A stretch of DNA of 64,000 nucleotides from Octopus sinensis (taxonomy: Eukaryota). Below, piece after piece: positions 23,040 through 62,783 of this stretch. Below the pieces are notes generated by a model that made no database searches, had not been told where the DNA came from, and worked only from the letters and a program-made list of their open reading frames with translations. How positions within the stretch are numbered: position 1 is the first letter of the stretch; every line of letters begins with the position of its first letter. The position numbers and the translations under genes are program-made. The stretch is from assembly GCF_006345805.1 (NCBI RefSeq), contig NC_043010.1, positions 27,528,001-27,592,000 of the forward strand. Reading direction: 5' to 3'.

Positions 23040-23378
23040 ATCAATAAATGGTGGGGTTGTGTTGCCCGCACGTGGAGAAATGATAGGCGAGGAAAAATTA
23101 TAAAAAGGCAGAACGCTAAATTGAAGGTAAATTTTAATAAAAGTGGGTGTATGGAAAATATAAGTTTATTATTACTTTTTGGAAAAAAACATTGTAAATT
23201 TCTTTTTTCCCCTTCCTCAATTTTTTAAAAATTTCTTTTCACCTTTCAATTCTTGAAAATTTGCTTTGCGATGAAAACCGATTAGAGTTAATATTTATTA
23301 AATTTTCCATACACCCATTTTTATTAAAGTTTACCTTCAATTTAGCATTCTGCCTTTTTATAATTTTTCCTCGCCTAT
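23040..23378 (+). mobile_element. Fold-back PLE-derived element (arms ~23089-23175 / 23285-23378)
   Basis: ataggcgaggaaaaattataaaaaggcaga...gtatggaaaat is inverted at the right end; a hammerhead lies in the spacer. Confidence 0.65.
23248..23289 (+). ncRNA. Minimal hammerhead, U3:A8 variant
   Basis: aattc-TTGAAAA-T.TTGC(TTT)GCGA.T-GAAA-ACCGAT-TA|gagtt. Confidence 0.55.
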
Positions 23379-24115
23379 TTATATAAATATATGTATGTAT
23401 GGATGTATGGATGTATGTATGTATGTATGTATGTATATATATATATATATATATATATATATATATATATATATATAATATATATATATATACAGTAACA
23501 CCCCCCTTTGTGGTTAGCCATATTGAGATGGCTTTTATACTTTACACACACACACACACACACATATATATATATATATATATATATATATATAATGAAC
23601 AATATCAACGTTAAAGCTCGAAATTGTAATGATCTTTTGAACGTTGACTAATGAGGAATAAGCTACACATTTTCTGTTGGAGAAATTTTCGCTATGTGAC
23701 GCTATGCACTCCTAATTATTTTTACTCATTTCTAAAATATTCTTTGAATATTTTTTCGTGTGACATCTATTTCTGTCTCTTTCTTTGCCTCTATTTTGCC
23801 TTCCACCCACTCTCTTTCTCCTTCCCTCCCTAATACTTTACTGCTTCCTCCGTTCTGGCTTTCTATCTGTCCTTCTCTAGTCTCCAGTCCTACAGGATAT
23901 TTTCATTTTCCTTTGCGTTACCTTATGTTGGTATGCCTTGTTACCACATGGCTTTTTTTTTTGTATATGTATGTCTTATTTGTCGGGTTTGTTTATGTCA
24001 TTGTCCTGTACATTCGTTGACTATTCCCAGTGGCTTTTCGCCACTGGCGCCACCGAAACTGATCAATATCAATGTTACAAGCGTGAAACTGTAATGACCT
24101 TTAGGGTGTTGACTG

Positions 24116-24206
24116 GTTCGTCTCATTCGATCCCCTGCCTCAATGTTTGTTTTGTCTGTCCTCATATCATCTCCTCTTTTTCTCCACCTCATGGTTAATA
24201 AAGAAA
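24116..24206 (+). mobile_element. Extremely 5'-truncated Tx1 LINE tail with 7-bp TSD (TTGACTG)
   Basis: Matches 38120-38212; TTGACTG at 24109-24115 and 24207-24213. Confidence 0.8.
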
Positions 24207-24939
24207 TTGACTGATGAGGAATAAGCTACGAATTTTCCGTTATGTTTTTGTAGTATTTTCATTTGTCGTGCTTTTGTTAAATTTTTATATATATATATAT
24301 ATATATATATATATATATATATAGAGAGAGAGAGAGAGAGAGAGAGAGAGAGAGAGAGACATGTATATTCTCTTTACTCGTTTCAGCCATGCGGTTGCGG
24401 TCATACTGGAACACCAGCGCTAAATCCGAACAGTGCGAAAGTACTCAACTATGCATTACTGGATACATATTCTTTGTTTGTTTCATGCATTAGGGAATTT
24501 ATTTAACGTTCCCATATGAAAGGCTTGATAATTGTTGAGAGATTCTTCTTTACCTCTACATGAAACCGTTGGTTGCCTTGTTAACACCGAAATAAAGTAT
24601 ATAAATGTGTGTGTGTAAATATATATATATGTTGGGGGGTGCGTGTGTGTGTGTGTATTAAAATACTGAGGGTAGAAATTGATATCAATCAATTAATATC
24701 AATTTAAAAGATCCGAAGATTTAGAAATTATTTTAAAATTAATAAGAGGAATGACCACTAAAGTGGATTTCTATACGCTAGAAATAGACGTCAAATCACC
24801 TTAACACAAAGAGCACTGGGGTTGTTGTAATCGACTAGATCCCTCCTCGAAATTGTTGTCCTTGTGCCAAAATTTTGAAACCTATATATATGTATATATA
24901 TATATATATATATATATATATATATATATATATATATAG

Positions 24940-25545
24940 ATTACAATTAATAAGAGGAATGACCACTAAAGCGGATTCCTATACGCTAGAAATAGACGTC
25001 AAATCACCTTAACACAAAGAGTGTGTTCTCAAGAAAGAAAAACTAGCAAACGCCAAAATGTAAAAAATAAGCAAGGCAAATGAAAATTTACAAAATAAAA
25101 CGATTACCTACGTATCTGGATTTCATTATTAATACTTGCAAAATGCAAAATGCAAGATGCAAGATGCAAGTATCTGTAAATCCTCAGCGTAGTCTGTCGT
25201 ATTTCGAAATATATTTTACAGAACTATACACAGAAACGTTTTCCCAAAATATACAGTTCTACAAAATATATTTGTGGTACTTTTCAAATGCCTCACTTTG
25301 GCGCGCTAGTGCCGAAAAACGACCCTGCAGATAATAAATTACCGCAGTTAATTCACCGGTTTGAGAACATTACGTAGGTAATCGTTTTATTTTGTAAATT
25401 TTCATTTGCCTTGCTTATTTTTTACATTTTGGCGTTTGCTGGTTTTTCTTTCTTGAGAACACACTTTTTGTGGTAAGGCGATTTGACGTCTATTTCTAGC
25501 GTATAAGAATCCACTTTAGTGGTCATTCCTCTTATTAATTGTAAT
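24940..25545 (-). mobile_element. Fold-back element with ~175 bp inverted arms (24940-25114 / 25371-25545) in (TA)n
   Basis: Arms are reverse complements and a hammerhead abuts the left arm. Partial extra copy at ~24737-24812. Confidence 0.85.
25108..25192 (-). ncRNA. Type I hammerhead ribozyme
   Basis: ctacg-CTGAGGA-T.TTA..GATACTTGCA/TGCAAGTATT..TAA.T-GAAA-TCCAGA-TA|cgtag. Confidence 0.78.
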
Positions 25546-60300: not shown

Positions 60301-60790
60301 TTAGTGGCGCAAAATTTCAAGCACTCTGCTATCAACCCACAAACAAACTACAGCTGAAGTACACGGGACCAGCAGGCAATGTAATCCCAGAGTCAGAGTC
60401 GGTGTGGGACCTGGGAATCCACACGAGCAACAACGCAACTTTCCATGTGCACATTGTTCAGATGGCAACACTATGCAGGCGGATGGCAGGTTGGACCCTT
60501 AGATTCTTCAGGACCAGGAACAGAGACACGAGACTTCTGCTTTGGAAAACCTTTGTACTCAGTAGTCTGGACTACTGCTCCCAATTGTGGTCTCCAAAGA
60601 GTGTAAAACAGAGTGTAAATCTAATTGCAGAAGTAGAAGCGATCCAACGCCACTACACAAAGAAAATAGACTCAGTAAAACACATGGGCTACTGGTTGAA
60701 GAAACTGGGACTCTACTCCCTGGAGAGAAGACGTGAGAGATATATAGTGCTATACATATGGAAAATAATGGAGAGCCTAGCCCCAAATTT
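57400..60790 (+). mobile_element. Near full-length decayed CR1-like LINE (5' UTR repeats, ORF1, APE, RT)
   Basis: ORF1 from 57721; APE motifs Y.PP, LMGELNFP, NILDL, SDH; RT motifs NYRPVSLTS, YLDFAKAFDKVDH, DLG, LDYCSQLWSP, LYSLERRRERY. Confidence 0.88.
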
Positions 60791-62030
60791 CATAAGTACT
60801 ATAGTATTTGCAGCAAGTCAACGATCAAGTTCCCTTACTCTGTAATACCTAACTTTGCTTCGATTATTGCATCAATCAATAGAAGCAAGCTTGCTGGGCA
60901 GGATAGCTGGAAAAGTTCCTTTGAGGATGACCAAGGACCTACGAATAATAATTCTGTAACGCTTAATGCCAATTGTACAAACAGTCTGCCTTTACCGGGT
61001 CTATCGAACCCAAGTAATAAGGGAAGATTTGATGGAATGAAAGAGGGAAACCTGTCTAGAACTGATGATACAAAAAGTAAAGGTAACAATAGAAATAAAA
61101 CAAGGAAAGGCCCCGGGATGAAATATAATTGTAGAAACCTCGAATTATGTCCCTTAGATGGTTCCTGTCCAGTTACTAACGTCATATATAAATGTGTAGT
61201 CAAGGACGAGGATGAGTTAAATAAATTTTATATAGGTAGCACGGTAGATTTTAAGGCTAGATATAGATCGCATATGAGCTCATTTTCTAACGATAAATAT
61301 TGTAATTCAACAACACTTGCATCCCATATACATAATTTGAAGAAGAAGAAGAAGAAGAAGAAGAAGAAGAAGAAGAAGAATTATCTAGAATGGTCTATTA
61401 TCTCAAAAACCCCAAATTTCAAAGGAAATATTAGCAAGTGTAAGCTGTGCATAAGGGAATCCCTTACCATCCTCGGGTGTTATGGACCACACACTCTGAA
61501 TAAATTTACTGATGTGATTCCTTTTTGCATCCATAAATTTTCATCTACGTTCTTAAAAGTGTATAGGAATAAAAAAAGTTGTAGCAAGTAAATAATTTAG
61601 CTCTTACAGGGAATTGAAACCATCGAGGTTGAATTTAATTTAATACACCCATTTATATTGGTTTTTTTAAAGGTTTTTTTTTAACTGTTTTAATTCTGGG
61701 TTTTTTTTTTCGATTATTTGGGCTGGTCTAAGCATGACTTCTTAAATAAGAAACCACGCAGTATTGTGTTAGGTTTGGTTAAGGAGGTCTCACCCTGGTA
61801 CGTGATGTCTGTTTCTTTATTTTTCCCCTGACGAAGGAGTCATTATCGTGATGCGCCCCCGTGCATTAAATACGGTGATGTACCCCTGAAATGGCCATAG
61901 GGAATGTAAATATGGTTTCTTCTTTTTTTGCTTGGACACTGGCTTTTAACTATAGGTTTCCCTTATCTTGAAAAGTAATTTTTAATCGAAAAAATTTCTA
62001 AACGATGAACTTTTATCTTACCTTATATAT
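60790..62030 (+). mobile_element. Penelope-like element 3' part (GIY-YIG ORF to 61591 plus pLTR), joined to the CR1 end
   Basis: NCRNLELCPLDGSCPVTNVIYKC...FYIGST..FKARY..H...CKLCIRE...LN...C.H; a poly-K (AAG)n expansion lies in frame. Confidence 0.88.
61823..61904 (+). ncRNA. Type I hammerhead ribozyme in PLE 3' pLTR
   Basis: ttccc-CTGACGA-AGG..CATTATCG/CGGTGATG..CCT-GAAA-TGGCCA-TA|gggaa. Confidence 0.82.
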
Positions 62031-62743
62031 TATTTATTTATATGCTTCCTACATATATGTATTTTTATATATTTTTATATATCTATATACGTATATATTT
62101 CTTTATATTTTTATGTATTTATTATTCTAGGTGTTGTAATGTTAAAAAAATATATAATATTTAGTCGCTAAAGTATTAATCATTAACTTTTAACCGCAAT
62201 GAACTGTATTCACACATTTTTCTTTTATTTTTCTTATATGCTTGTATTGATGAGTTGTGTTTCATCCTCCGTGGTTTTATGCATGTATATTCTATATGAA
62301 AGAAAAAGCATTATGTGATTCAATGTTCGAGATATGAAATGTTACGTGGATGACCTTATATTTGTTTGTTCTGCAACTATAGTTTAATATATATATATAT
62401 ATATATATATATATATATATATATCACGTGACCGACCAGTCCATCAGATGTAGTTACACCTCGCTGGTCGCAATGCGTTCGCATTGTTTTAGCCTTCGAA
62501 TGACGCCACCCCGCTGGCTAAGCGAGCAGGCCGTATATATATATATATATATATAGAGAGAGAGAGAGATAAGAAAGTTTGTTTGGTAAAGCACGTGGGT
62601 GAATATATAAGAAAATAGTAAAGTGTGAAAAAACGACAGAAGGCTTAAATGTTAAAAAATATATATATTTGTGTCAAAATGTCTGGAGAATATTGGAAAA
62701 TTTTTTTTCCTTTCCTTAAAATGACATAATTTTAAAATTTTTA

Positions 62744-62783
62744 AAGAAATTACCGGTTTCGCGTGTAGCTTTTCAAATTTCTT
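62744..62783 (-). ncRNA. Minimal hammerhead, U3:A8 variant, in a probable inverted pLTR
   Basis: aagaaat-TTGAAAA-GC(TACAC)GC-GAAA-CCGG-TA|atttctt. Confidence 0.72.

Follow-up and report, generated by a model that had tools for sequence, protein, structure and literature searches.

Hammerhead motifs with a U3:A8 core beside remnants of Neptune-type Penelope-like elements in Octopus sinensis

A stretch of 64,000 nucleotides of Octopus sinensis DNA (assembly GCF_006345805.1, contig NC_043010.1, positions 27,528,001 to 27,592,000 of the forward strand; hereafter the window, with coordinates counted from its first letter) was analysed for hammerhead motifs of Penelope-like elements. A sequence-only reading had pointed to four hammerheads with UUGA(A/C)AA in place of CUGANGA, in which positions 3 and 8 are U3:A8 instead of C3:G8. 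The analysis confirmed all four as genuine hammerheads of the minimal type I whose cores carry U3:A8; they lie at 23248-23289(+), 33751-33794(+), 55653-55692(-) and 62744-62783(-) and are called motifs 1 to 4 below.

Each motif was laid out as stem I, UUGA(A/C)AA, stem II, GAAA, a palindrome, UA and again stem I; the core was UUGAAAA in motifs 1, 2 and 4 and UUGACAA in motif 3. The minimal type-I core (U4 G5 A6 N7 R8 A9, G12 A13 A14, A15.1-U16.1 and H17) was present in all four, and the Watson-Crick pair of positions 3 and 8 was U-A in each. Motif 2 had U3 at 33757, A8 at 33762, a stem II of GGUC/GACC, the palindrome ACCGGU and a predicted cut after A17 at 33788. In motif 3 (U3 55688, A8 55683, predicted cut after A17 at 55657) stem II had six pairs and the palindrome was AGCGCU, while motif 4 (U3 62776, A8 62771, predicted cut after A17 at 62751) had seven pairs in stem I, two in stem II and the palindrome ACCGGU. 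These three motifs were intact, with stems I and II closed and a short palindromic stem III. Motif 1 (U3 23253, A8 23258, predicted cut after A17 at 23284) is a decayed copy, because its stem III palindrome is broken (AACCGAUU) and a U-U mismatch lies at the base of stem II; it also failed the strict scan.

The strict scan gave three U3:A8 matches in the window, whereas 60 shuffles, each made within blocks of 500 bases, averaged 0.017 (one shuffle held one match, none held more), and a fixed pattern gave three against none in 100 shuffles. No motif of this shape carrying just U3 or just A8 came up in the strict scan of the window (0 U3:G8 and 0 C3:A8). The stubs holding the four motifs showed no significant similarity to one another in a self-search, and the motifs therefore represent four different families. 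In an alignment of 12 motifs the 3-8 pair covaried without mismatch (7 C-G and 5 U-A), which upheld the description of U3:A8 as a compensatory pair in hammerheads of Penelope-like elements. In these 12 motifs 93.5% of the cells of stems I, II and III and of the pair 3-8 were paired, against 33-46% with slid partners, a control that favours the structure since this was named from the same sequences. The palindromes of motifs 2 to 4 self-paired at -8.3 kcal/mol.

Rfam models did not recover the motifs in the scans made, which covered motifs 2 and 4 singly and the window as a whole. Motif 2 scored 20.9 bits with HH9 and missed its gathering score of 52; no hammerhead family was listed around motif 4 when its region was scanned singly, and none was among the best 150 of 356 matches of a whole-window scan, a listing filled by microsatellite matches to microRNA models.

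Three of the four motifs adjoin coding remnants, and two of these remnants carry a CxxxxCxxC linker, as had been noted from the sequence. Motif 4 lies in a stub (62575-62817, -) that forms an inverted, pLTR-like (pseudo-long-terminal-repeat-like) 3' end and stands head to head with a reverse transcriptase (RT) copy at 62817/62818. The open reading frame (ORF) beyond the junction (62818-64000, +; 76% to the relative P0001) is 5'-truncated and frameshifted and runs off the window; it contains the RT from just before motif A, the thumb, the linker CGRSNCATC and the start of a GIY-YIG endonuclease. The junction was read with public contigs of four sequencing runs, DNA-type contigs that were placed on 62575-63300 when at least 80% alike: loose ends lay at 62817 and 62818, and single contigs of X8 and X12 spanned motif 4 with one difference each, outside the motif. 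None of the listed contigs spanned the junction, and motif 4 is linked to the RT by this arrangement.

Near motif 3 lies a frameshifted endonuclease (57309-56754, -) with the Neptune-type linker CGDRRCETC and GIY-YIG, whose end is repeated at 56375-56445 and 56120-56196. Motif 3 follows about 1 kb past it, and the link is one of proximity. At ~55975-56030(-), about 130 bases past the last repeated endonuclease end, there is a possible fifth U3:A8 core, heavily decayed, which the RNA model did not match. Motif 2 lies about 730 bases downstream of a GIY-YIG endonuclease end (32943-33029, +; the C-terminal 29 residues, Neptune-type, 66% to P0005). Motif 1 sits in a non-coding stub between (TA)n tracts (23045-23385) with inverted arms at 23083-23163 and 23298-23378 (81 bases, 95% alike). 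The stub probably arose as a 3' end that was truncated and now abuts an inverted copy.

The remnants appear to be Neptune-type, an assignment made by domain order and linker motif. The order RT, CX2-5CxxC linker and C-terminal GIY-YIG was seen at 62818-64000 and 57309-56754, and the full-length relatives P0001, P0002 and P0004 had the same order. It is also that of the Neptune clade described by Craig et al. (2021, PMC8557442), with which the window further shares an inverted truncated copy beside the repeat and (TA)n insertion, whereas it holds no whole element. Of the label "Neptune/Naiad-type" given earlier the first half was kept. A Naiad identity was ruled out, as the linker and the endonuclease lie C-terminal to the RT, while Naiads are described as having an N-terminal endonuclease and no canonical hammerheads (PMC8557442). 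The nearest named relatives of the motif 4 RT came from Octopus bimaculoides, O. vulgaris and Argonauta (55-60%), and in a tree of 35 rows it shared a subclade of 15 rows (support 100) with every one of the five proteins named as octopod. The endonuclease end near motif 2 had its best matches in this subclade and probably belongs there, judging from these matches; the endonuclease near motif 3 matched best outside it (P0165, P0047 and P0035). A tree placement of the latter was not used, as the row was frameshifted and on a long branch. Among viral contigs no relative of the motif 4 RT was found.

The same contigs were used to examine whether the core state of motif 4 is that of its family. For this family 1,630 contigs were placed in X1 and 1,241 in X14, and in both runs coverage peaked, among 30 bins, in the two that contain the core (62750-62799); contig depth, according to the tool's own warning, gives no copy number. 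None of the 40 variant rows listed, out of 57, lay between 62702 and 62852. U3:A8 with A17 appears to be the majority state of this many-copy family. The family consensus of C3/G8 that had been named beforehand as the sign of decay was not found for motif 4 among the variant rows listed.

The sequence-only reading had gone on to infer that one lineage of Penelope-like elements fixed the variant, and this did not hold. Ninety-seven loci of RT relatives were collected and scanned for all states of positions 3 and 8, about 26 of them being Neptune-type by identity and linker. Among the 14 scored Neptune-type loci from other sources, 13 were C3:G8 (with L001 and L015 near copies, and L006, L008 and L083 weak or called by eye) and one, L086, was U3:A8. 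No state was assigned to L003 and L009, whose cores were degenerate. U3:A8-like matches in L003, L034, L035 and L045 were dropped because they lay inside an ORF or on the other strand or had no palindrome. Two more distant loci, L041 and L061, also had U3:A8, and L041 grouped with good support with three C3:G8 loci having nearly the same stem II. L041 (4075) and its close relatives L062, L073 and L095 have nearly the same stems and differ by C3:G8 to U3:A8, which makes them a ready natural pair for assays.

On an RT tree with 26 labelled rows U3:A8 required four changes for four rows, in four separate places, and a single U3:A8 clade was rejected (p-AU 9.6e-7). Motif 4 and L086 as one clade were rejected more weakly (p-AU 0.018). 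From an earlier RT tree five loci had been dropped for too few RT columns, and one locus did not align with the reference protein. Because four changes were needed for four of the 26 rows and a single clade was rejected, the swap is best read from these sequences as recurrent, its carriers not forming one Penelope-like lineage. It would likely be a near-neutral compensatory change favoured in AU-rich repeats. The upstream G+C was 0.24 for U3:A8 motifs (n=7) and 0.33 for C3:G8 motifs (n=21), with p=0.012 if kinship among them is ignored; the lower value fits drift under AT pressure.

A narrower form of the one-lineage idea may still hold, namely fixation within an octopod Neptune radiation. U3:A8 with A17 would have become fixed a single time in one octopod Neptune sublineage, from which the four families would have inherited it; we give this somewhat less than an even chance. 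A model trained with motifs of either state found four short-stem motifs in the window at E<0.001, each of them U3:A8; the four had been in the training set, and no C3:G8 motif of this shape turned up. Set against one in 14 scored Neptune-type loci elsewhere, this suggests fixation at the level of the host, which is possibly a new point. The position of the motif 4 RT beside all octopod-named proteins and the best matches of the motif 2 endonuclease end are in favour of it, as are UUGAAAA, ACCGGU and UA, which motifs 2 and 4 have in common and motif 1 has in decayed form. On the other hand, the endonuclease near motif 3 matched best outside the subclade, the core state within the subclade was read only from the window motifs, and the swap arises easily elsewhere.

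The U3:A8 swap itself is known, and novelty of the variant was not supported. Perreault et al. (2011, PMC3088659) described U3-A8 as a natural covariation of C3-G8 in several hammerheads and noted earlier evidence that such swaps are active in vitro, which agrees with the activity assumed for them in the earlier reading; section 8 of that paper does not tie the U3-A8 variants to Penelope-like elements or to minimal forms active only as dimers. In the Cercyon Penelope-like elements of Schistosoma mansoni about 1,300 U3-A8 matches were obtained only once the descriptor had been changed (Cervera and De la Pena 2014, PMC4209133), so that the failure of CUGANGA searches, also foreseen from the window, had been met in that study itself. 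U3:A8 occurs in two of the 56 motifs that this study takes as representative; the three from molluscs are all C3:G8 and none of the 56 is from a cephalopod (PMC4209133). The elements of 2014 share with the window motifs the minimal type-I fold (lying 3' of the endonuclease gene there, and likely so here), the palindromic stem III and U3-A8, and a shrimp motif has the layout of the window motifs (no extra base after A9, AGCGCU, UA) but C3:G8 (PMC4209133). The carriers in the window differ in being Neptune-type and in an octopod host, and A17 is present in four of four motifs, against G and U in the two published U3-A8 examples (PMC4209133). C3:G8 is also the state of every Hydra and Chlamys motif in the 2021 listing, one of which is from O. 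bimaculoides (PMC8557442). A literature search for U3-A8 together with hammerhead matched only the 2014 study (PMC4209133). The searches made returned no octopus U3:A8 case and no discussion of U3-A17; the work of Lunse et al. on dimer-cleaving Penelope-like hammerheads was outside their coverage. What the window adds is the joining of U3:A8 with A17 at the cut site, which is predicted to damp cutting.

Because all four motifs have A17, U3 could pair with A17, extend stem I over the cut site and so lower the activity. The predicted U3-A17 pairing probabilities, which come from secondary-structure energies only and ignore tertiary contacts, were 0.07, 0.77, 0.45 and 0.73 in the monomers of motifs 1 to 4, and 0.88, 0.83, 0.05 and 0.72 in the dimers. 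For 13 comparison motifs, which all lack complementary bases at positions 3 and 17, the corresponding value was 0.00 throughout. In the mechanism we propose, two copies in a tandem transcript would pair through the palindrome (ACCGGU or AGCGCU) into a shared stem III of six pairs, as in the dimer model for Penelope-like hammerheads, which needs self-pairing palindromes (PMC4209133). U3:A8 would stand in for C3:G8, the RNA would be cut after UA, and cutting would trim the RNA of the element, as proposed for other such elements. Slow cutting as dimers, after UA in tandem transcripts, is likely on these models, and the copies in the window, being solitary truncated stubs, are likely inert. The reading that we consider well founded, with good confidence, is that the four motifs are minimal type-I U3:A8 hammerheads, likely in the 3' repeats of four Neptune-type families, and predicted to be slow dimer cutters.

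The motifs might instead be dead. U3:A8 with A17 would then lock the U3-A17 fold, and the motifs would persist as conserved DNA or as protein-binding signals, which we consider unlikely. Besides the predicted pairing, this is favoured by the analogous C3-G17 pair, to which a slowing of minimal hammerheads by at least 300-fold has been ascribed (Kalweit and Hammann 2013, PMC3884650), and by a lizard element whose insertion in vitro did not need hammerhead cleavage (PMC11167929). In the C3-G17 trap, base 17 is complementary to base 3 and is proposed to lengthen helix I across the cut site with a loss of activity (PMC3884650), as U3-A17 would; the pair in the window is predicted, natural and common to four families. 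Against dead motifs stand every catalytic position, the 3-8 complementarity and the three stems, all retained in four motifs whose surrounding sequences are unrelated; coverage of the motif 4 stub was also deepest over its core. An A-U end pair is, moreover, weaker than a G-C pair. A still less credible account, to which we attach very little weight, sees in U3 and A8 the decay of individual copies, once canonical CUGANGA hammerheads, within a genome rich in AT: each change is a transition towards A/T and motif 1 is visibly decayed elsewhere in its sequence, but both changes occurred together in four of four motifs, no single-change motif of the shape was found in the strict scan, and the absence of a listed core variant contradicts it for the family of motif 4.

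Several points weigh against slow dimer cutters in four Neptune-type families, in addition to the kinship ignored in the G+C contrast and the neglect of tertiary contacts in the pairing figures. The stretch between motif 3 and its endonuclease holds three repeats of the endonuclease end as well as a (TAGA)n tract, which makes their tie uncertain, and the neighbour may be of another family; motif 1 has no coding neighbour, none having been found near it. The dimer of motif 3 is almost without U3-A17 pairing. The family state was examined for motif 4 only, and even there a minor or diverged C3:G8 subfamily may exist, as the variant rows were 40 of 57 and the contigs at least 80% alike only. Contigs with loose ends at 62752 suggest a sister subfamily that has C17. 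The hammerhead of the lizard element was dispensable for insertion in vitro and needed the protein of the element (PMC11167929).

As a whole the interpretation that we started from was partly supported. As found, a host group and a clade are added to a known variant, and in practice U3:A8 should be included when hammerheads are counted in cephalopod genomes. We offer only tentatively, and hold to be rather doubtful, the further proposal that an octopod Neptune radiation fixed U3:A8 with A17 and thereby formed a very large set of hammerheads, held off by U3-A17 until a dimer or the protein of the element opens the pair. If true, those octopod hammerheads would be missed by standard CUGANGA and Rfam searches, and the U3-A17 brake would be the counterpart of the C3-G17 trap. 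If U3-A17 is a kept brake, it would provide a natural test of what selection favours in Penelope-like hammerheads, be it cutting, slow cutting or waiting for a partner or protein. A single change at position 17 is enough to break the pair and leaves the core pair untouched.

C3:G8 hammerheads with a long stem II occur in the same window at 3606, 4798, 25192(-) and 61823. The window thus holds C3:G8 hammerheads of other families, and the genome therefore has both core states. Apparent C3:G8 matches at 3854, 5052 and 8617 were set aside as weak. The canonical C3:G8 hammerhead at 61823-61904(+) has a 53-base stem II insert and a UGGCCA palindrome, and lies 230 bases past a GIY-YIG remnant at 61145-61591(+). 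This remnant, with a decayed CxCx5C linker, CxxC and CxH, fits the published description of the Hydra clade (PMC8557442); the endonuclease at 61145-61588 gave no match in a homologue search. The hammerheads at 3606-3686(+) and from 4798(+) are two copies 1.2 kb apart on the same strand, with a CAUAUG palindrome and a UC site; the stub that holds them is duplicated, measures about 650 bases and is flanked by (TA)n tracts. One transcript might carry both as a dimer, or the duplication may be an assembly artefact. In the hammerhead at 25108-25192(-) stem II is lengthened by a short tandem repeat, and its stub has long inverted arms like that of motif 1.

Words of the type ACGTCA/TGACGT lay within 65 bases upstream of the hammerhead in L001, L007, L011, L012 and L081 and at 62790-62800(-) of the window, and TATAAA lay within the same distance in L012, L081 and motif 4. 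These words are possibly the promoter of the repeat. The loci L081 to L097 are contigs from assemblies of bacterial genomes; they code for Penelope-like RTs, in several cases together with hammerheads, and are likely animal contamination. The window also contains broken ORFs at 48700-51375(+) that resemble a Helitron-type Rep/helicase, presumably a mariner-like transposase fragment at 29227-29631(+), and what we assume to be RT remnants of the LINE (long interspersed nuclear element) type at 11166-14301(+), 36188-37977(+), 39170-40129(+) and 42999-43972(+).

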